DNA from: a virus
Taxonomy: Duplodnaviria; Heunggongvirae; Uroviricota; Caudoviricetes
Direction: 5' to 3' (one strand)
IMG/VR virus record: IMGVR_UViG_3300032038_000031
Coordinates: 42,370-106,369 of that record
DNA length: 64,000 nt
In this document: piece after piece, positions 3,618 to 57,365 of the stretch
Layout: each line of letters opens with the position of its first letter
How positions within the stretch are numbered: the first letter of the stretch is position 1
Made by a program: the position numbers and the translations under genes
Notes under the pieces: generated by a model
Told to the model about the DNA's origin: nothing
Databases searched by the model: none
What the model saw: the letters and a program-made list of their open reading frames with translations, nothing else

Positions 3618-3800
3618 ATGCCTTATATAGTAAAGCAAGATGGTAAATTTGATTATAAATATAAAGAAATTTTTGTTGATAATGCTAATGAAATAACAAA
3701 TATAGATTTATCTTCTTTGTGCCCTGGTAGTGTTGTTTATGATATTGCAACTGGAAATGTATATATTTTAAATTCATCTTTTGAATGGATAAAACAATAG
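3618..3800 (+). CDS. hypothetical protein (60 aa from ATG at 3618)
   Basis: RBS AAAGGAGG at 3601-3608, ATG 3618 (track start 3609 is TTG). Confidence 0.45.
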   Translation: MPYIVKQDGKFDYKYKEIFVDNANEITNIDLSSLCPGSVVYDIATGNVYILNSSFEWIKQ

Positions 3801-3810
3801 GAGGTCTTAT

Positions 3811-4155
3811 ATGGATATAATAACATTAGCTTTAGCTAAAAAAATGATTAATAGCCAAAAAGACGCCTATGTATTTAATTCTGTTGAGGAATTACAAGAT
3901 TTTATAAATAGTTCAAAAGATAGTTTAAAAATTGGGGATAAATTTTATATTACTGATCCTAATTCCCCTGACTATTGGTGGGATGGGACAATATTACAAG
4001 AAGAAAAAGTTAAAATTGATCTAAGCAATTTAGCAACAAAAGAAGAATTAAATACTAAACAAAATATTCTAACTGAAGAAGATAAACAAGAATTAGTGCA
4101 AAAAGTAATTACCGCCTTACCAAAGTATAATGGAGAAACTAGTGATAAGTCATAA
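3811..4155 (+). CDS. hypothetical protein
   Basis: RBS AGGAGGT upstream; 114 aa. Confidence 0.5.
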   Translation: MDIITLALAKKMINSQKDAYVFNSVEELQDFINSSKDSLKIGDKFYITDPNSPDYWWDGTILQEEKVKIDLSNLATKEELNTKQNILTEEDKQELVQKVITALPKYNGETSDKS

Positions 4156-4211
4156 TAGAATTCATAGGTTTAAAAAAAGAAATAGTAATATTATAAGAAT
4201 GAGGTGATTAG

Positions 4212-5756
4212 ATGATAAAAGTAAATATGGAAACTAAAGATGGTGTAATTTTAAATACTAATGGAAAATATTGTGAAGATTATATACAGATAACACCGAC
4301 TAATGCTGATGCAATTTCTGCACAGAATATTAAAGAAGGTGTTACTATATTAGGAGTTGAAGGAGCTTTAGAACCATCAAATATAGATCAACTTATTAGT
4401 GGGGAAATAACAACTTTAAATATTCCTAATAATGTTACAAAAATTAAAGATTATACATTTTATGATTGTCCTAAATTAACTTCTATTACAATTCCTAATA
4501 GTGTTACTAGTATTGGTAATTTCGCATTTAATGGTTGTTCTAATTTAGTATCATTAACTTTACCTTTTTATAATCCTGCTATATTTGGTACTAGTAGATA
4601 TAATAATAGTACTAAGTGTGGTAGTTATTATATTCCTAATAGTTTAGAGTCTATTACTTTAACTAATAGTAAAACTATTGAGAATAATTTATTTCAAGAT
4701 TATAATATGATAAAAAATATCACTCTTAATGATGGTATCACTAGTATTGGAGATTATGCAATTAGAAATTGTACTAGTTTAACATCTATTACAATTCCTA
4801 ATAGTGTAACTAGTATTGGTCCAAGTGCATTTTATGATTGTTTTAGTTTAACATCTATTACTATACCAAATAGTGTTACTAGTATTGGTCCATGGACATT
4901 TTATAATTGTTTTAGGTTAAAATCTATAGAAATTCCTGATAGTGTTACTAGTATTGTAAATGCTGCATTTGCTGGTTGTACTAGTTTAACATCTATTACT
5001 ATTCCTAATAGTGTAACTAATATTAGTGAAGGTGCATTTAGTGGTTGTTCTGGATTAACATCTATTAATATTCCTAATGGTGTTACTAGTATTGAAAATT
5101 ATACATTTGCTGATTGCCGTGGTTTAAAATCTATCACTATTCCTAATAGTGTTACTAGTATTGGTAATAGTGCATTTGATGGTTGTTCTAATTTAACAGA
5201 TGTAACTATACCAAATAGTGTTACTAGTATTGGTAATAGTACATTTGCTGATTGCCGTGGTTTAAAATCTATCACTATTCCTAATAGTGTTACTAGTATT
5301 GGTAATAGTGCATTTGATGGTTGTTCTAGTTTAACAGATGTAACTATTCCTAATAGTGTTACTAGTATTGGTAATAGTGCATTTTATGATTGTTTTAGTT
5401 TAACATCTATTACTATACCAAATAGTGTTACTAGTATTGGTGATTGGGCATTTGCTTATTGTACTGGATTAACATCTATTACTATCCCTGATAGTGTTAC
5501 TAGTATTGATAATAGGGTATTTACTAGTTGTTCTAGTTTAACAGATGTAACTATAGAAAAAGGATTTAATGCTAATAATCTAGATCTTAGTAGTTCTACA
5601 TTATATACTCATGATACCATTCTATCATGGTTAAATGCTTTATATGATAGAACTGGGTTAGATACTTATAAATTCATTATTGGCACTACTAATCTTAATA
5701 AACTAACAGATGAAGAAAAAGCAATCGCAACTAATAAGAACTGGACTTTAGCATAA
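4212..5756 (+). CDS. BspA-type leucine-rich repeat (LRR_5) protein, probable receptor-binding/adhesin component
   Basis: >15 tandem ~23-aa units '[24 protein letters not shown]'; RBS GAGGTGATTAG; followed by rho-independent terminator. Confidence 0.7.
5113..5388. repeat. two near-identical tandem 138-bp units inside LRR gene
   Basis: 5113-5250 vs 5251-5388 differ at only a few positions (cgtggtttaaaatctatcactattcctaatagtgttactagtattggtaatagtgcatttgatggttgttcta...). Confidence 0.8.
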
Positions 5757-42360: not shown

Positions 42361-44694
42361 TCATAATTTTACTACTGCGGTTGCAGTAGATTTTATCATC
42401 ATATTTCCTAGACTTTGTCTACTTAATTTTGGAATATCTTTTGCAGAAATACAAATACTATTAGTTGGTCCGATAACAACAATATTATCTTCATCATTAA
42501 TCATTTCTGCTCCAATAATTTCATGACTATTTTTGGTTACAAAAATTCCTTTTCCGCCTTTAGACTGGATAGGAAATTCTTTAAGTTCAATTTTCTTTCC
42601 TAGCCCTTCAGCGGTAAATATTCCTACATAATCATTAGTATTATGAATAGGTAATACTGCAATAACTTCATCATCATCGTTTCTTAAATTAATACCTTTA
42701 ACCCCACTTGTAACTCTTCCTATTGGTGAAATTGTATTAGTTTCAAAACGAATTGCTATACCCTGTTTAGTTATTAAAATTAATTCTTCATCATTTAAAA
42801 AGGTTACTTTAGAGATAGAATCTCCATCTTTTATTTTAATTGCTGTAATACCATTTCGTTTAGTCTTAAAATATTCTTCTATTTTTGTTTTCTTTACCAA
42901 TCCATTTTTAGTAATAAATACAACATATTCAGCCTTACTCTTTCTATATAGAGAGGTAATAGCAATAATATGTTCTTCAGGAGGCAAAGAGATAAGGTTG
43001 TTAATTGGTGTTCCTTTTTCCGCATTTGTCCCTACTGGTACACTATCAACAAGTAAACGATACATCTTACCTTGATCAGAAAACATCATTAAAGTGTCAA
43101 CAGTATTAGTAGAAATACAATTTAATAAAGTATCATTTTGAGTTTTTACTCCTTTTCCAAATCTCTTTTGAACTTTAAAATTTTTACTTGGGACTCTTTT
43201 AATATTTCCGCCTTTAGTCATTACAACAACACAATCTTCTGGGGCAACTGCCTCTATTTCTTTTTCATTAGAAGATGCATTAATTTGAGTAATTTCAGTT
43301 CTTCTTTTATCTCCAAATTTTTTAACAATTTCATTTAAACGATTTCTTAATTCTTGAATTTGAATAGATTTATTTAATAATAGAGCTTTTAAATCAATTA
43401 CTTTTTTATCTAAATCACTTTTTTCTTGTTGTAATTCAATTTTTTCTAATCCCGCTAATCTACCAAGTTTCATATCTACAATAGCTTTTGCTTGATTATC
43501 TGTAAATTTATATATCTTAACAAGATTATCTTTTGCGGCAACTGAAGATTTTGATTTTTTAATTAAACTAATAATATTATCAATATCCTCTAAAGCTCTA
43601 ATAAGACCGTCTACAATTTCTAACCTTGCTTGGGCTTTTGCTAAATCAAATTTAGCTTCTTTGCTAATACAAGAAAGATTATGATTAACATAAATCATAA
43701 TACAATCTTTCAAATTTAATTCAACTGGAGTTTTATCAACAAGTCCTACTTGATTATAAGATACACTGGTTTGAAGTCCAGTTTTAGCAAAAAGTTTTTG
43801 AACAACAGAATCTAAAGATACATCTTTTTTACACTCAATGACAATACGCAAACCTTTTTTGTTACTTTCGTTACGAACATTTTTAACTCCAACAATTTCT
43901 TCATTATCACAAGCTTTACCAATCTCCGCTAAAAGATTTTCTGTATTTTGTCCATAAGGAATTTCATAAAAGACAATTTTATTTTTTTCAAAAGTATATT
44001 TTCCTCTAACTTTAATACTACCATGCCCAGTTTTCATTATTGCGGGGATATCCTTTTGATTAATGATTACTCCTCCTGTTGGGAAATCTGGACCGGGTAG
44101 ACTTGGTTCTTTACCATCCAAATAATCATTAATGGCAGTTGCAACTTCTCCTAAATTATGAGGTAGCCATGAGCAAGCAATAGCGACACCTATGCCACTA
44201 TTAGGGTTACATAGTAAATTTGGAAAAATTGAAGGCAAAGTTGTTGGTTCAAAATCATTTTCATCATAATTTGCAATAAAATCAACATTTTTTTTCTTTA
44301 AATTATTTAATAAACCTAATTCTGCAATTTTAGATAATCTTGCATTTGTATATCTATAAGCGGCTGGTCCATCTCCATCAATATTTCCCATGTTACCATG
44401 AAAATCAATAAGTGGATATCTCATAACCCAAGGCTGAGATAATCGAACCAATGCTCCATATACAGAAGAATCACCGTGAGGATGCCATTTACCAATGACA
44501 TCTCCGACAATTCTAGCACACTTTACATAAGGTTTATTAGAAGTATATTTACCATCATAACCTGCCCATAAAATTCTTCGTGCTACTGGTTTTAGTCCTG
44601 TTCTAGCGTCAGGTAAACTACGATCTGTATTAACTGCCGCCGCATATTCTATAAAATTTGTACTTAATTCATTAATAATATCATTAGTTTGCAT
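42361..44694 (-). CDS. gyrA: type IIA topoisomerase A subunit (GyrA/ParC-like)
   Basis: LPDARTGLKPVARRIL, HPHGDSSVY, catalytic AAYRYTNARL; 777 aa. Confidence 0.85.
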   Translation of the reverse strand: MQTNDIINELSTNFIEYAAAVNTDRSLPDARTGLKPVARRILWAGYDGKYTSNKPYVKCARIVGDVIGKWHPHGDSSVYGALVRLSQPWVMRYPLIDFHGNMGNIDGDGPAAYRYTNARLSKIAELGLLNNLKKKNVDFIANYDENDFEPTTLPSIFPNLLCNPNSGIGVAIACSWLPHNLGEVATAINDYLDGKEPSLPGPDFPTGGVIINQKDIPAIMKTGHGSIKVRGKYTFEKNKIVFYEIPYGQNTENLLAEIGKACDNEEIVGVKNVRNESNKKGLRIVIECKKDVSLDSVVQKLFAKTGLQTSVSYNQVGLVDKTPVELNLKDCIMIYVNHNLSCISKEAKFDLAKAQARLEIVDGLIRALEDIDNIISLIKKSKSSVAAKDNLVKIYKFTDNQAKAIVDMKLGRLAGLEKIELQQEKSDLDKKVIDLKALLLNKSIQIQELRNRLNEIVKKFGDKRRTEITQINASSNEKEIEAVAPEDCVVVMTKGGNIKRVPSKNFKVQKRFGKGVKTQNDTLLNCISTNTVDTLMMFSDQGKMYRLLVDSVPVGTNAEKGTPINNLISLPPEEHIIAITSLYRKSKAEYVVFITKNGLVKKTKIEEYFKTKRNGITAIKIKDGDSISKVTFLNDEELILITKQGIAIRFETNTISPIGRVTSGVKGINLRNDDDEVIAVLPIHNTNDYVGIFTAEGLGKKIELKEFPIQSKGGKGIFVTKNSHEIIGAEMINDEDNIVVIGPTNSICISAKDIPKLSRQSLGNMMIKSTATAVVKL

Positions 44695-51843: not shown

Positions 51844-52410
51844 TTAAAATGTTTCCTCAGAAGACTTCCATTCAATAAATGTTGGCTCATTCGCCCCTTT
51901 TAAATTTTTCTGAATGTGGTATCCATGAGGGTTAGTTAATACTTTATATATTGCTTGTATTTTATTATCTTCATTAAAAAGTGGCATACAAATAGTATTA
52001 GCCATTGATAGCATAACAGAATTAGGAACTTTCAATCTACCTTTTCTTTTATCATTTCTTTGACTACAAACTTTTAATGGAGTATTCATTACAAAATAAA
52101 TAATTCGATAATTTGTTAAAAAATAATCAATATTTTTTAATACTTTTTTTCTAGATTGTTTAGATAGATGTGTAGCATCTAATAAAACATTAGTATTCTC
52201 TTGTAAAGATAAAACTGCTGAATTAATAAATTCTCTAAATACTAAATCTTCTTTATCAAAATAGCCATCTTCATCTTTTATTTTAGAAAAACGAATATCA
52301 TCTCTTGAAATATATGTATAATGAAAATATTCACAAAATTTCTTTGCAAAAGTAGTTTTTCCAGAGCCAGGGATACCGACCATTAAAGCTAAAATAGGTT
52401 TATTACTCAT
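51844..52410 (-). CDS. polynucleotide 5'-kinase (T4 Pnk kinase-domain-like P-loop protein)
   Basis: ILALMVGIPGSGKTTFA Walker A, D..R, 188 aa kinase-only. Confidence 0.6.
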   Translation of the reverse strand: MSNKPILALMVGIPGSGKTTFAKKFCEYFHYTYISRDDIRFSKIKDEDGYFDKEDLVFREFINSAVLSLQENTNVLLDATHLSKQSRKKVLKNIDYFLTNYRIIYFVMNTPLKVCSQRNDKRKGRLKVPNSVMLSMANTICMPLFNEDNKIQAIYKVLTNPHGYHIQKNLKGANEPTFIEWKSSEETF

Positions 52411-52774
52411 TATTCTTCTCCTTTAAACAAATATTTTTTTTATTTGTATTCCAACATTTTCCATCAATACAACATAAACATTTTTGTTCTGTACAAATTG
52501 GTAAATCTTCTACTGGGATTCTTTGTCCATCTTCTGTAAAACGACCTAATTTAAACTCCATTAAAAAATTCTGATAAGAATAATTACTAAAAGGTCTTAT
52601 TTCACAATGATTTGTTTCTTTTTTACAATGAATACAATATAATTTTTTTAAATGACCAGATTCTCTAAAAGCATTTTTCTTTCTTGGAATAGGAATACCT
52701 TTATTGCCACACTGAGTACAATAGAAATCAGAAATCAACATATTATTTACTTTACACATAATTAAACACCTCAT
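52403..52774 (-). CDS. Zn-ribbon protein (start likely MRCLIM.. at 52774)
   Basis: CTQCGNKG...CIHCKKETNHC; listed N-terminal 32 aa is translated promoter/leader repeat (IFFKKNDIIIIENK). Confidence 0.4.
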   Translation of the reverse strand: MRCLIMCKVNNMLISDFYCTQCGNKGIPIPRKKNAFRESGHLKKLYCIHCKKETNHCEIRPFSNYSYQNFLMEFKLGRFTEDGQRIPVEDLPICTEQKCLCCIDGKCWNTNKKNICLKEKNNE

Positions 52775-52806
52775 ATTTTTATTTCTTTTCTTATTTTCTA
52801 TAATAA

Positions 52807-52834
52807 TTATATCATTTTTTTTAAAAAAAATCAA
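52807..52834 (-). promoter_or_regulatory. phage promoter family copy
   Basis: TTGATTttttttaaaaaaaaTGATATAAT. Confidence 0.55.
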
Positions 52835-52837
52835 AAA

Positions 52838-52864
52838 ATAAGAGGAGTTTAAACTCCTCTTATT
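52838..52864 (-). terminator. rho-independent terminator after SPFH gene
   Basis: aagaggagtttaaactcctctt perfect hairpin then U-tract (minus strand). Confidence 0.7.
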
Positions 52865-52866
52865 CA

Positions 52867-53772
52867 TCACTTGGTTGAAATATTAAATAGCATATTAGAA
52901 TCTGTTCCACTAATAAATTTAGGCATTACACCATTCCATTTATTAATATATTCTTCTTGTAGAATTTTATTAGTAATAGATTTTTCTTTCATTTCATTAG
53001 CCTGTTTTTCAGCTTTTGCGGCAATTAGCTTAGCATCAGCATTAGCCTGAGCCTCAGTTCTCTTTACTTTAGCATCAGCTTCTGCTTTAGCAATATTCTT
53101 TTCATTCTGAATTGACTGCTTTTCAGATTCAAGCTGAGCTTTTTGCTTATCCGCAACAGCTTTATTATAACTCTTTGAAAAGTTTGCACTTAAAACAACT
53201 ACTTTATTAATAATTACTACTCCATCGCCATATTTATTATTCAATGACTTTTGAATATAGCTTGTAACAATAGGCTCTAATACGGCACGGTTTGTAGCAT
53301 CTGTATCATTTAGTGTTTTTGATGTAGATTTAATCGCTGATCCTACAATATCAGAAGAAATAAGATTATCTTCATAATCTGTTACATTAGCGAAAATCCA
53401 AGCTGATTTGCTTGGAGCAATATGATATGTAACAGTAATATCATTATAATAAATTTCTGTTCTTTTGCTTGTTTCTGCGGAAATCTTGTCTGTAAATTTA
53501 ATATCTGTTAATTTATTATTAATAGTTTCTATACTCTGAACAAAAGGAATCTTCCAATGGAAACCATCTTTTAGAGTATTTTCATCAATTTGCTTAAAAG
53601 TAGTTCTTACACCTGTATAATTAGTAGGAATAATTATAAAACTATTAATTACAAAGCCAATTACTACTAAAGCTCCAGCAATTCCATAAAAAATCTTACT
53701 ATGTTTATAATATCCATATACAACAGCCAAAACTGCCAATAAAATTAGTAAAACAAAAGCAATAAGTATCAT
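52867..53772 (-). CDS. SPFH/band-7 (prohibitin/HflK-like) membrane protein
   Basis: N-terminal TM helices; TGVRTTFKQIDENTLKDGFHWKIPFVQSIETI ~ SPFH core; Ala/Lys/Glu-rich coiled C-terminus. Confidence 0.6.
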   Translation of the reverse strand: MILIAFVLLILLAVLAVVYGYYKHSKIFYGIAGALVVIGFVINSFIIIPTNYTGVRTTFKQIDENTLKDGFHWKIPFVQSIETINNKLTDIKFTDKISAETSKRTEIYYNDITVTYHIAPSKSAWIFANVTDYEDNLISSDIVGSAIKSTSKTLNDTDATNRAVLEPIVTSYIQKSLNNKYGDGVVIINKVVVLSANFSKSYNKAVADKQKAQLESEKQSIQNEKNIAKAEADAKVKRTEAQANADAKLIAAKAEKQANEMKEKSITNKILQEEYINKWNGVMPKFISGTDSNMLFNISTK

Positions 53773-53879
53773 TCAGTTATGTCCTCTCTTTCAATATAAT
53801 TAATTAAGTTATTAATAATTGCTCTATTTTGATTTTTAAATAATGGTGTAACTTCTGGAATTGTCCATCCCTTTCCCCT

Positions 53880-54605
53880 TTAATTAATCTTAATAATTTT
53901 ATTATATAAAAGATAAGCATTATATTTTAATTGCTTATCATCGTGAAAGTGACCAAAGAACCATTGTTTATAATTAATTTTGTTTTTAACTTTCTCTAAA
54001 AAATGTTCCATTGTATAATCTTCTTTTAAATCTGGTATTTTTAAAAATAAATATTGAAGTTGAGATAACCAAGAGAAAGGTGCGGTATGAGAAAAAACAA
54101 AATCAAACTGATTAGAAATATTATCTATCGCCATTAAAATATCTTCTTGTTCTTCTTTAGATAGCTGTTCTGTTTCAAACCATTTCCATCCCATAAGTAA
54201 TCTATATTCTTTATCTATTGAATAAGCTCCGCCAATACCTAAACAAGAAAACTTATCAATTTTAAAAATACCATCTACTGGAAAAATAACATTAGAAGCA
54301 ATTTTATTTACATATCCATAACATTGAAATTTTTCTATCCATTCATAAGTATAAGCTTTCTCTTGTGTTATACAATCAATGGTATCTTGAGGTCTTTTTT
54401 CGTGATTGCCGTTAATACAAATTAATGTAATAGGAATTTCCGCAAGTTTTTTAAAATTACAGTGTTCTCTTAAATCCTCATTACAATTTAAACCAATATC
54501 TCCAAGAAGTACTATTACATCTTCTTTTGAAGTATTAGCATTTTTACAAAAAGAAATTAAAAAGTTTAAATCTCCATGACAATCACCCTTTACAAAAATT
54601 TGCAT
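53880..54605 (-). CDS. calcineurin-like metallophosphoesterase
   Basis: KGDCHGD, LGDIG, NGNHE, GHFH motifs. Confidence 0.65.
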   Translation of the reverse strand: MQIFVKGDCHGDLNFLISFCKNANTSKEDVIVLLGDIGLNCNEDLREHCNFKKLAEIPITLICINGNHEKRPQDTIDCITQEKAYTYEWIEKFQCYGYVNKIASNVIFPVDGIFKIDKFSCLGIGGAYSIDKEYRLLMGWKWFETEQLSKEEQEDILMAIDNISNQFDFVFSHTAPFSWLSQLQYLFLKIPDLKEDYTMEHFLEKVKNKINYKQWFFGHFHDDKQLKYNAYLLYNKIIKIN

Positions 54606-54770: not shown

Positions 54771-55148
54771 TCATTTAATATCCTCCATAGGTTGTTTCCA
54801 ACAACTTACACAATCTTGGCAGTTCTCGCAATCAATATTTGGGTATAATTGTATAACACAAATTTCAGGGCATCCACCCTCACCGAGTTCTGCATTTGGA
54901 TATTTTTTTAAAAAATCATCTAAATAAGTATGAAAAGGATGCTTTTCAATCCATTTTACTACTTTATTATAAATAGTTTCATTTGAACATTCTAATAATG
55001 TACATTTAGGCTCTACCCTTTTAAAGTCGGTTTCCATAATAACAAAAGGACAGCTTTGACAATTATCTTTTCTACAAGTAGTACACATCTTTTTAAATGC
55101 GGTAAGAAAAATTTTAGTTTCTTTATAATCCATAAAAGATACCTCCAT
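54771..55148 (-). CDS. Cys-rich protein (14 Cys)
   Basis: CTTCRKDNCQSCPF...CPEICV...CENCQDCVSCW; followed by ATGA-coupled 33-aa CxxC..CxxC micro-ORF (54664..54774). Confidence 0.45.
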   Translation of the reverse strand: MEVSFMDYKETKIFLTAFKKMCTTCRKDNCQSCPFVIMETDFKRVEPKCTLLECSNETIYNKVVKWIEKHPFHTYLDDFLKKYPNAELGEGGCPEICVIQLYPNIDCENCQDCVSCWKQPMEDIK

Positions 55149-55258: not shown

Positions 55259-56554
55259 TTATTCAATTTTAAAATCTTCTTCAGCTTCTTCTATATCTGG
55301 AGTTACCGCATTATCTTTTATAATACCTTCTAAAATCTTAAATTCCAAATTTTTATGTTTATATGCAGTAAAAATAGGTTTATTTACTACTCTAACTACA
55401 ACCCCTTCTCTAATATGAGTTTTCCCGATTGGATCAGCACCTACAGAAAACATTTCAGCAAGTTCCATAATATCTCCAATATTATTCTCTGTAACAACAA
55501 GAGTTAAAAGATGAGGAACACAATCTACCCCCATTTGTTTACATCTGTATCGCATAAATTCAGGTGTATATTCTACAACTTCTCCATCTTCATTAGTCAT
55601 AGTCATTCTATAGACATAAGCATGACAAGAACCAATAGGTTCTCCATAATTAAAAACTGTCTTTTCTCCATAGCGATTAATAAAATCTTGACCAATCTTT
55701 TTATTATCACAAGAAGCCATAATAGGAGTATCATCATGTACATATCCCACTACTTCATAATAAACAGTTTCTCCAAACCACAATTTATTTTTAAAAATTT
55801 CTGCGGTTTTTATTCTAAAATCTTGAGTACCATAAAACCCTTCATTGTTATTATTTACTATTGTGCGGCGAGTACCAGTAATATAATCTTTTTTATAAAT
55901 TGGAGAACCCTCTCTATGAAAAATTCTATCTAAGAAACTTCTTTTATAACCTTTTAAAACTGGTAAATATCCTGTTCTTTGACTTGTTCCATGCATTTTA
56001 ATAGAAAAGTCTAGAATATCCCCAACTTTAATATTATTGATATAATAAGCTAATTGTTCAGTATCTTTATGCTCTTGGAATAAAGGAGCTATATTTATTT
56101 TCTTTTTAGTTTTTTTAGGAATATTTAGATTTGGACGAGAATGAGCTTTATGCTTTGGGATGTACTTAGTTGCAATAACAACCCCATTAAAAGTTTCTAC
56201 CTGTTCCCCTTCTTTTAATAAAGATATATCTCCAAAAGGAGCTAAACACTTTAATGGAAGGAAAAGTCCATCTGAAGGTTCTCCTCTTAATTTAACAGTT
56301 GTTACATGTCTTTTCTTAGGGTCTAAATATCCGCCAATATTTTTACCATTTTCATCTAATTGCCTTAATAAATTGTTTTGCATACAAAAATCATAATTTA
56401 ATTGTCCATCTGTTGGGAAATAAACTCCTAAATCACCTTCTTTAAATGTATTATCAACACAAACAGTATTACCAAAGCAATCTGCTAATGTTAATCTATC
56501 TGCATTCGGATGAGGACGAACATTTTTTAATCTAGTTACATAACAATGATACAT
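55259..56554 (-). CDS. ATP-dependent RNA ligase (Rnl2/Rnl5-like) with N-terminal tRNA-binding OB (EMAP/Trbp111/CsaA-like) domain
   Basis: N-term VRPHPNADRLTLADCFGNTVCVDNTF (HPNADkL tRNA_bind signature); motif I SIKMHGTS (KxHGxN), later EVVGYV, NEDGEVVEY, EGVVVRV..KHK ligase motifs. Confidence 0.6.
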   Translation of the reverse strand: MYHCYVTRLKNVRPHPNADRLTLADCFGNTVCVDNTFKEGDLGVYFPTDGQLNYDFCMQNNLLRQLDENGKNIGGYLDPKKRHVTTVKLRGEPSDGLFLPLKCLAPFGDISLLKEGEQVETFNGVVIATKYIPKHKAHSRPNLNIPKKTKKKINIAPLFQEHKDTEQLAYYINNIKVGDILDFSIKMHGTSQRTGYLPVLKGYKRSFLDRIFHREGSPIYKKDYITGTRRTIVNNNNEGFYGTQDFRIKTAEIFKNKLWFGETVYYEVVGYVHDDTPIMASCDNKKIGQDFINRYGEKTVFNYGEPIGSCHAYVYRMTMTNEDGEVVEYTPEFMRYRCKQMGVDCVPHLLTLVVTENNIGDIMELAEMFSVGADPIGKTHIREGVVVRVVNKPIFTAYKHKNLEFKILEGIIKDNAVTPDIEEAEEDFKIE

Positions 56555-56573: not shown

Positions 56574-57365
56574 TTAGTAATAATATAAACCAATCATTAC
56601 CTGTGCATATGCGGAAAATACATTTGTTCTAAATTTAGTTAATAAATGATTAAATTTATCATCATTTCCTTCTGGCACTAAAGTAAAACGACTTTCTAAA
56701 GACCAAACATCTGTTACAATTTTTTGAGATAAGGAAATAGCTTCTTTAGGGGTTATAAGTCCCTCTTTAATTTTAAAATATTCTTCTCTATCACAAGATT
56801 GTAAGCAATCTTTAAAATTACAACCATAATAATAAGTAAAAATAAGATCCCTTAAAAAGTACATATGAGCAAGATCTTTAGTATAATACACTTTTTCATC
56901 AGCTAATGAAGAGTTATGAATTTTACTGTCTAATGATCTTATCATTCCAAAAACAGCATTATAAAATTTTATTGGATGCCAATAAGCTAAATCTTCTCGT
57001 TTTTGTTTTAGCATATTCCAATAATCTTCATAATAAGAATCAATAATATAATAATCTGTAAATAACAATTCTAAATAATTAAGACTTTTATTAAAAAATT
57101 TTGGTAATAATCTATAATCAATAATATTAATCTGGTCTTTACCAAAAGCAATTATCTCATTGCGGGGCTGCTGTGTGCTTGTAATTTCTTCAAAACTTGG
57201 AATAATTATTACTTTTGAATCAATATCTGATTGACTATTATCAAGGTTATAATTTTGACTTCCAATTAAAAATGTCCCTAAGATTCCTGTCTTTTCAGAC
57301 AAAAATCTTTTAGCACATTTCTGATGCTGTTCTAACCTATTTAAAATTTTTTCTTTTTTAGTCAT
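56574..57365 (-). CDS. minimal nucleotidyltransferase (Pol-beta superfamily)
   Basis: LIGSQNYNLDNSQSDIDSKVII = hG[GS]x9-13Dh[DE]h signature. Confidence 0.55.
   Translation of the reverse strand: MTKKEKILNRLEQHQKCAKRFLSEKTGILGTFLIGSQNYNLDNSQSDIDSKVIIIPSFEEITSTQQPRNEIIAFGKDQINIIDYRLLPKFFNKSLNYLELLFTDYYIIDSYYEDYWNMLKQKREDLAYWHPIKFYNAVFGMIRSLDSKIHNSSLADEKVYYTKDLAHMYFLRDLIFTYYYGCNFKDCLQSCDREEYFKIKEGLITPKEAISLSQKIVTDVWSLESRFTLVPEGNDDKFNHLLTKFRTNVFSAYAQVMIGLYYY

Follow-up and report, generated by a model that had tools for sequence, protein, structure and literature searches.

The gene described here lies on the minus strand of a 64,000-nucleotide stretch of viral DNA (the window; Caudoviricetes, IMG/VR record IMGVR_UViG_3300032038_000031, positions 42,370 to 106,369 of that record), and its product is predicted to be an ATP-dependent RNA ligase in which an N-terminal OB domain precedes a nucleotidyltransferase domain that contains all six motifs; no further domain is appended at the C terminus. 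We favor, with a probability of about 0.8, the reading that this protein is a nick-sealing, ATP-dependent RNA ligase of the Rnl5 plan that would do the sealing within a phage RNA-repair island and would use its OB domain mainly for catalysis. A sequence-only reading made by a model had described the gene as an RNA ligase fused to an EMAP/Trbp111-type tRNA-binding domain; this apparent fusion is the defining and long-known architecture of Rnl5, and the protein is an unexceptional representative of an established enzyme class. The arrangement of OB and nucleotidyltransferase domains was published by 2007, and the family name Rnl5 dates from 2015; the label RNA ligase is already given to such proteins by Pfam, by PHROGs and in hundreds of phage annotations. 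Since the architecture, the likeness of the OB domain to the B2 domain of PheRS and the ligase annotation were all previously available, the finding leaves existing knowledge unchanged.

Domain architecture and active site of the predicted ligase

The open reading frame (ORF) listing reproduced the gene exactly (55259..56554, minus strand, 431 residues, ATG-initiated), and every peptide quoted in the sequence-only reading was found in its product, with positions verified by back-translation: VRPHPNADRLTLADC (residues 12-26), GNTVCVDNTF (28-37), KMHGTS (186-191), EVVGYV (267-272), NEDGEVVEY (321-329) and EGVVVRV (383-389). This analysis itself shows the fold and motifs of the protein, its family relationships and the linkage of its gene to its neighbors. 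The PHROG 968 profile, annotated as RNA ligase, matched essentially the full length of the protein (residues 2-410, E 9.3e-61). Pfam PF21189 (PHA02142 OB-fold domain) matched residues 6-101 above its gathering score, Pfam PF09414 (RNA_ligase) matched residues 186-392, and NCBIfam TIGR02306, the DraRnl/DRB0094 model, matched residues 9-196 (E 3.5e-18). These profile matches are far beyond chance.

The list of Rnl2-type motifs given previously held for KMHGTS, EVVGYV and EGVVVRV, which are motifs I, III and IV, whereas NEDGEVVEY is kept in close relatives yet is no canonical nucleotidyltransferase motif. Three further motifs had been overlooked: Ia (GTRR, residues 227-230), IIIa (YVYRM, 313-317) and V (KHK, 399-401). 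The C-terminal domain thus contains the full set that characterizes covalent nucleotidyltransferases, including the lysine nucleophile: motif I (K186-MHGTS-x-R193), Ia (G227-T-R229), III (E267-VVG270), IIIa (Y315-R316), IV (E383-GVVV-R388) and V (K399-H-K401). In an alignment of 13 sequences, which included orthologues at 28-34% identity from Vibrio, Mycobacterium and Alishewanella phages, the invariant residues were K186, H188, G189, T190, S191 and R193 in motif I, G227 and R229 in Ia, E267 and G270 in III, Y315 and R316 in IIIa, E383, G384 and R388 in IV, and K399 and K401 in V. The protein ends 30 residues past motif V, with a helix (403-415) followed by a disordered acidic tail, so that there is no domain C-terminal to the nucleotidyltransferase domain, as in Rnl5.

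The active-site residues of the Naegleria gruberi enzyme NgrRnl have been defined experimentally (PMC7261155). Searches of the PDB, queried with the protein alone or with either of two family profiles, never aligned the nucleotidyltransferase domain to NgrRnl and returned the N domain and a weak T4 Rnl2 match only; the motif mapping was therefore made through a MAFFT alignment of the ligase with two canonical phage Rnl5 proteins above the TIGR02306 cutoff and with an NgrRnl sequence (residues 4-338 in chain numbering) rebuilt from a printed HMMER alignment. In the nucleotidyltransferase domain the nucleophile K170 corresponds to K186, and R190, E227 and E312 are conserved as R229, E267 and E383, respectively; in the OB domain D53 and K121 are conserved as D49 and K130. 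NgrRnl D172 is replaced by H188, a clade-wide histidine as in DraRnl with its essential His167, and R149 is replaced by Q167 (Q, H or N across the clade); Q167 and H188 fall within nucleotides 55991-56056. R4 of NgrRnl has no counterpart, and the alignment leaves it ambiguous which residue corresponds to K326. Of the three OB-domain contacts to the gamma-phosphate in the NgrRnl Michaelis complex, two (D53 and K121) are therefore kept and R4 is absent, and the contact made by R149 of the nucleotidyltransferase domain is replaced. The invariant H162 or the K150-K152 cluster of the linker would be possible candidates for replacing the lost gamma-phosphate contact. The clade to which the ligase belongs (hereafter the long-form clade) thus departs from NgrRnl at R149, a residue reported as important.

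What the enzyme does, how it uses its OB domain and which RNA it repairs in vivo are inferred; the reaction would follow the classic three-step ligase pathway. In the first step K186 would attack the alpha-phosphate of ATP to form ligase-AMP and, as in NgrRnl, the OB domain would close over the active site while D49 and K130 orient the pyrophosphate leaving group. The AMP would then be passed to a 5'-phosphate RNA end, and attack by a 3'-OH would seal the break. This course would be that of known Rnl5 enzymes, which seal 3'-OH(RNA)/5'-PO4 nicks in duplexes via ligase-AMP (PMC4408790, PMC1807946).

The N-terminal module of the protein is homologous to the OB domain of DraRnl and NgrRnl, but TIGR02306 scored only 65.6 bits against an equivalog cutoff of 151.15 bits and covered only model positions 8-176 of 341. 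Orthologues of the ligase scored 17-59 bits with the same model, and the canonical phage proteins Aes508 (470 bits) and BcepSaruman (187.7 bits) both passed. Because the cutoff was not reached and only the N-terminal half was matched, the ligase is taken as a member of a divergent sister subfamily; we class this as a long-form subfamily of the Rnl5 architecture, and the ligase not as a DraRnl equivalog.

Origin and role of the N-terminal OB domain

A full-length AlphaFold2 model, the check proposed in the sequence-only reading, gave an N-terminal OB fold with a predicted local distance difference test (pLDDT) score above 90, and the top structural matches in BFVD were full-length viral proteins already named after NgrRnl. 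The domain has the EMAP/Trbp111-type OB topology together with the HPNADKL and KLRGxxSxG motifs. Nevertheless, neither the full protein nor its isolated N-terminal 130 residues matched Pfam PF01588 (tRNA_bind; gathering score 27 bits) at E<=10, while in the same scan three Escherichia coli K-12 controls (the B2 domain of PheT, the C-domain of MetG, and YgjH) scored 87-115 bits (E 1e-25 to 1e-33). Of four divergent phage orthologues, that of Bacillus phage Kirov alone gave a match, which was partial and sub-threshold (12.6 bits, E 0.16). Direct membership of the ligase in tRNA_bind was ruled out by this result.

The closest relatives of the domain are the N domains of Rnl5 enzymes. A PDB sequence search with the N domain found the Naegleria gruberi RNA ligase (5cot) at E 1.5e-3 with the single sequence and at 3.4e-4 with a diverse family profile, and HHalign matched the N domain of the long-form clade to canonical Rnl5 N domains (NgrRnl, BcepSaruman and Aes508) with 97.8% probability (P 7e-13, 105 columns). 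Against a three-sequence tRNA_bind alignment the same clade domain gave 77-79% probability (P ~2e-5, score 35), anchored on HPNADRL/HENADKL and KLRGEPSDG/KMRGETSEC. Since 30 column-shuffled templates and a reversed template scored at most 18.0, the alignment to tRNA_bind is real. The canonical Rnl5 N domains aligned to tRNA_bind with only 4% probability, and the KLRG..S.G motif alone was matched. Taken together, these comparisons identify the N domain as the signature module of Rnl5-type ligases and a remote relative of the tRNA_bind OB fold; the OB domain descends from, or shares common ancestry with, the tRNA_bind/EMAP OB fold. The long-form clade keeps the ancestral tRNA_bind-like signature better than NgrRnl-type enzymes do, and its sequences form the clearest link from tRNA_bind OB folds to the N domain of Rnl5. 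The likeness of the Rnl5 N-terminal OB domain to PheRS B2, a tRNA_bind domain, was already in print in 2007, citing earlier work, and a Pfam scan of E. coli PheT assigned the B2 region to tRNA_bind. Accordingly, the EMAP/Trbp111-type label stands at the level of remote homology, through the OB fold and the two motifs, but not as a family assignment; what was found is the generic OB domain of Rnl5-type ligases with no tRNA-binding profile signal, the outcome that the sequence-only reading had itself named as refuting.

Compared with the tRNA_bind family (PF01588: Trbp111, CsaA, YgjH, PheRS-beta B2, the MetRS C-domain, Arc1p and EMAPII), the domain escapes the Pfam profile, carries an additional helix/loop insertion of ~25 residues (residues 52-82) and sits N-terminal to a ligase, and the documented role of the same domain in Rnl5 is catalytic. 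In these enzymes contact of the OB domain with the gamma-phosphate and metal favors step 1 (PMC7261155), removal of the N domain from NgrRnl or DraRnl severely impairs both adenylylation and nick sealing as a whole and spares step 3 (PMC4408790, PMC1807946), and the specificity for RNA-OH lies in the nucleotidyltransferase domain (PMC7261155, PMC4408790). The proposal that the OB domain works as a Trbp111/EMAP-type module and hard-wires tRNA specificity, as the unrelated C-terminal domain of T4 Rnl1 does in that enzyme, could coexist with a catalytic role, and it is the likeliest of the alternatives, but we consider it unlikely. The closer Rnl5 relative is known for gamma-phosphate and metal contact in adenylylation, and step 3 is independent of the N domain. 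In addition, D19 is the sole residue of HPNADRL that is invariant across divergent orthologues (NgrRnl reads IAGAEAI there), which suggests a structural rather than a ligand-contact role. Trbp111-type proteins bind tRNA as homodimers and, to our knowledge, the B2 domain of PheRS has no established tRNA-binding role, both of which count against the proposal. The claim of hard-wired specificity therefore found no support in the domain itself, which would be used mainly as a catalytic or clamp module rather than for tRNA-specific recognition.

A related version, in which the long-form clade is an evolutionary intermediate that docks on tRNA through its tRNA_bind-derived OB domain besides aiding adenylylation, and is thus a tRNA-directed nick-sealing ligase, is likewise doubtful. 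Pointing toward it are the retention of HPNADRL and KLRGEPSDG, largely lost in NgrRnl types, the replacement of R149, and the company of tRNA-repair-type genes (kinase, phosphatases and RlaP-like, with Thg1 in a sibling phage). If true, tRNA docking would give the first physiological substrate for ligases of the Rnl5 architecture, whose in vivo targets have been stated to be unknown.

Gene neighborhood and a candidate RNA-repair island

As shown in Table 1, the ligase lies in a co-directional run of seven genes (58412-59092, 57358-58404, 56574-57365, the ligase, 54771-55148, 53880-54605 and 52867-53772), in a window of ~27% GC whose minus strand carries nearly all genes beyond ~6 kb. The GC skew changes sign near 6 kb, the point at which plus-strand genes give way to minus-strand genes (window 1-64000).

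Table 1. Features of the predicted ligase and of neighboring genes (positions in the window)
Feature	Coordinates	Strand	Remarks
RNA ligase gene, Rnl5 architecture	55259..56554	minus	431 aa, ATG start
N-terminal OB domain, Rnl5 signature N module and remote tRNA_bind-fold relative	56159..56554	minus	Residues 1-132
HPNADRL motif	56492..56512	minus	Residues 15-21; common to tRNA_bind proteins (E. coli PheT HPNADKL, YgjH HENADKL)
KLRGEPSDG motif	56267..56293	minus	Residues 88-96; in tRNA_bind (PheT KLRGEPSEG) and canonical Rnl5 (NgrRnl RLRGQLSQG)
Basic linker PKHKAHSRPNLNIPKKTKKKINIAPLFQEHKDT	56060..56158	minus	Residues 133-165; 136-150 low-confidence in model; F159, H162, T165 invariant
Nucleotidyltransferase (adenylyltransferase) domain	55310..56059	minus	Residues 166-415; motifs I, Ia, III, IIIa, IV, V
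Motif I KMHGTSQR	55976..55999	minus	K186 is the predicted AMP-accepting lysine; aligns with NgrRnl K170
Acidic C-terminal tail AVTPDIEEAEEDFKIE	55262..55309	minus	Residues 416-431; predicted disordered, no domain; pLDDT <50 for 417-431
P-loop kinase, polynucleotide-kinase-like, candidate 5'-end healing	51844..52410	minus	AAA_33 E 4e-17; PHROG 505 polynucleotide kinase E 5.8e-21; downstream of run
SPFH/Band-7 protein, same co-directional unit	52867..53772	minus	Band_7 E 6e-15
Metallophosphoesterase, candidate 3'-end healing	53880..54605	minus	Metallophos E 1.4e-10; PHROG 1649 E 1.3e-27
Cys-rich orphan, 125 aa, directly downstream of ligase	54771..55148	minus	CxxC-type clusters, e.g. CTTCRKDNCQSC, CENCQDCVSC
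Pol-beta-type nucleotidyltransferase, RlaP-like, immediately upstream of ligase	56574..57365	minus	PHROG 388 E 8.7e-15
Diverged RlaP-like paralogue	57358..58404	minus	BLASTP 24% identity, E 6e-7; catalytic GS..DxD signature lost
Second metallophosphoesterase, lambda/NinI-phosphatase-like	58412..59092	minus	Also matches phosphatase segment of Pnkp-like PHROG 8238
DUF2828 + DUF7788 protein, 502 aa	59248..60756	minus	PHROG 850 'RNA-binding protein' E 2.5e-124; upstream of run

The ligase gene shows a conserved, co-directional linkage to genes for a kinase, phosphoesterases and a Pol-beta nucleotidyltransferase. This linkage was evaluated in 80 related viral loci (49-57% identity), which are phylogenetically related and many of which come from one metagenome, by counting neighbors within 10 kb on the same strand. 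Homologues of the kinase were found near the ligase in 67/80 loci and of the RlaP-like gene in 62/80, followed by the DUF2828 gene (42/80), the phosphoesterase genes at 53880-54605 (27/80) and 58412-59092 (20/80), and the diverged RlaP-like paralogue (25/80). Gene order varies between the loci, which argues for a functional linkage of these neighbors with the ligase. Homologues of the Band-7 gene were found in only 7/80 loci, so its tie to the ligase is weak. In Bacillus phage Kirov an annotated polynucleotide kinase adjoins the orthologue, and in a relative at 55% identity the ligase stands beside an AAA_33+HD protein and NAD-salvage genes. The window kinase also matched the kinase part of the Pnkp-like tri-domain PHROG 8238, and the RlaP-like gene at 56574..57365 gave sub-threshold matches to Pfam RlaP (E 0.015) and Polbeta (E 0.023).

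A phage RNA-repair toolkit has been reviewed that comprises an ATP-dependent ligase, polynucleotide kinase, phosphoesterases, RlaP, Thg1 and ROT/TROVE proteins, often with NAD+ salvage (PMC7824862), and the window neighborhood, judged by its predicted gene products, matches this toolkit. The kinase, the phosphoesterases and the RlaP-like gene would indicate repair of RNA, possibly of tRNA. The kinase and the two metallophosphoesterases would heal the 5'-OH and the 2',3'-cyclic or 3'-phosphate ends left by host ribonucleases, the RlaP-like nucleotidyltransferase could restore lost nucleotides, and the likeliest targets would be tRNAs or other structured RNAs that the anticodon nucleases of the host have cut. 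tRNA broken by these nucleases is the most plausible substrate, a proposal made because of the gene context and not because of the OB domain. With its close linkage to end-healing enzymes, the ligase makes a tractable subject for identifying what Rnl5-type ligases repair in vivo. A scaffolding role in the repair system, like that of TROVE/Ro proteins, is possible for the DUF2828/DUF7788 protein. No tRNA or tmRNA gene was detected by ARAGORN in the 64-kb window, and Rfam returned no family at its gathering threshold and one chance-level match in a permissive scan; neither program found a tRNA-like or Y RNA partner for the TROVE-like and Band-7 genes.

The same gene context bears on a role in DNA metabolism, in which the ligase would seal nicks where a short RNA patch with 3'-OH ribonucleotides meets DNA, as proposed for DraRnl in radiation resistance. 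Nick sealing by Rnl5 enzymes needs RNA on the 3'-OH side only, their physiological substrates have been stated to be unknown, and DNA repair with RNA patches has been speculated upon (PMC4408790); one report includes the statement that a DraRnl knockout is radiation-sensitive (PMC5397189). However, the conserved neighbors are genes of the RNA end-healing and repair type (polynucleotide kinase, phosphoesterases, RlaP-like nucleotidyltransferase and TROVE-like protein) with no replication genes among them, and Kirov has a separate ATP-dependent DNA ligase nearby. We regard this role as very unlikely and favor the sealing of broken RNA.

Terminator-like hairpins were enriched in the ligase region (8 compared to 2.4 +/- 1.4 expected). 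Minus-strand sites at 59250-59224 and 52865-52836 flank the seven-gene run, and a weaker candidate (53416-53397) lies within the Band-7 gene. The hairpin at 52836-52865, a 13-bp stem followed by a T-run, stands directly after the Band-7 stop and inside a GTG-start ORF (52403-52870, minus strand); this zinc-finger gene (PHROG 1257) probably starts at a downstream ATG, and its PHROG match begins at residue 22. A scan for sigma-70 promoters was uninformative (91 sites, with 85 +/- 10 expected).

The tandem RlaP-like paralogues overlap by 8 nt. The first has a GS...DID signature, the second has a degenerate signature (GEVNYGFALQENEIR) and an extra C-terminal region of ~100 residues, and the two may form an active/inactive pair. 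No Pfam or PHROG family matches the Cys-rich ORF (54771-55148), and none of the 80 related loci has a homologue of it.

The Thg1 family comprises 3'-5' polymerases for tRNA 5'-end repair. In a sibling contig (L009) with a 98% identical ligase and the same gene order, a Thg1-family gene (3734-4498) was found between the metallophosphoesterase and the Band-7 gene, at a place where the window holds only a 108-nt gap (53773-53879), indicating a recent gain or loss of this tRNA-repair gene. Genes for NAD+ salvage (NAMPT/NAPRTase, PRPP synthetase, nicotinamidase and NAD synthase) recur beside the ligase family in distant phages: in the window at 61032-62228, in a gut contig (L008:9370-13644), in Bacillus phage Kirov (L001:13854-16934) and in an Alishewanella phage (L004:6987-9446). 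None of the 80 closest loci has a homologue of the NAMPT gene of the window, so the salvage enzymes recruited beside the ligase family appear to differ.

Relation to known ligases and distribution of the long-form clade

Known Rnl5 enzymes include DraRnl of Deinococcus radiodurans, NgrRnl (PDB 5cot) and the proteins of Aeromonas phage Aes508 and Burkholderia phage BcepSaruman. Compared to canonical Rnl5 proteins (340-372 residues), the ligase is ~90 residues longer: residues are inserted in the basic linker, behind motif I, between motifs III and IIIa (~35 residues) and between IV and V, and the acidic tail is added; compared to NgrRnl, it has Q in place of R149, lacks R4 and has a K-x-K motif V. 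This last motif (K399-H-K401-N) is invariant and resembles motif V of Rnl2, and a diverse family profile matched T4 Rnl2 over motifs III-IV (E 1.6e-3). Unlike T4 Rnl2 and kinetoplastid REL1, however, the ligase has an N-terminal OB domain and no C-terminal alpha-helical domain, its chain stopping at residue 431, 30 residues past motif V, where Rnl2 has an all-alpha domain, and TIGR02307 (Rnl2) did not match it, while orthologues scored 12-16 bits against a cutoff of 197. That the protein is an Rnl2-family ligase that gained an N-terminal OB domain outside Rnl5 is the least probable explanation, given this absent helical domain, the contiguous match of the N domain, linker and motif I segment to the DraRnl model (residues 9-196), a domain order that defines Rnl5, and the weak Rnl2 match of the canonical Rnl5 protein Aes508, which makes the Rnl2-likeness of the core a general Rnl5 property.

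The combination of kinase, phosphoesterase and ATP-dependent ligase encoded together resembles T4 Rnl1 with Pnkp and the bacterial Pnkp/Hen1 system (Clostridium thermocellum). In contrast to these systems, the activities in the window would reside on separate polypeptides and the ligase is of the Rnl5 type, neither Rnl1 nor Rnl4; unlike in bacterial Pnkp/Hen1, no Hen1 methyltransferase was seen.

The long-form clade is large and divergent, with members in phages that infect Bacillota, Actinomycetota and some Proteobacteria. A word-indexed search that scored 8,000 candidates returned at least 7,985 significant full-length relatives (clusters at 90% identity), many of them on contigs of 90-190 kb. 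In 366 records of annotated phages a homologue was present, nearly always labelled 'RNA ligase'; most of the hosts were Mycobacterium (296), followed by Microbacterium (27), Gordonia (22) and Bacillus (8), and the closest were Bacillus phages Kirov and PBC2 (48% identity). Canonical Rnl5 was found in a largely distinct set of 315 phage records, mainly of Pseudomonas, Aeromonas and Burkholderia, whereas the hosts of the long-form clade are Mycobacterium, Microbacterium, Gordonia, Bacillus and Clostridia-type bacteria. Literature searches on the long-form ligase of actinophages and Bacillus phages found no specific characterization, and this abundant clade has no biochemically characterized member in the searchable literature. 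When 24 kb of the window were compared by megablast with 50,697 phage records, no match was obtained, indicating that there is no close sequenced phage among them. Matches in cellular genomes were mostly contigs of 125-175 kb binned into metagenome-assembled genomes (MAGs) of gut and rumen Clostridia and other Bacillota, with a few isolates, and are consistent with a large AT-rich phage of Bacillota.

Matches in rumen Bacteroidales MAGs were considered as a bridge to DraRnl and dropped, as they proved to be a separate variant. This third and larger OB plus nucleotidyltransferase variant (L133:2947-4527 and L138:2920-4545; 526-541 residues) has the motifs SVKMHGTS, LYGEICGY, REGVCIRID and FKLKT, is 22-26% identical to the window ligase and carries very large insertions.

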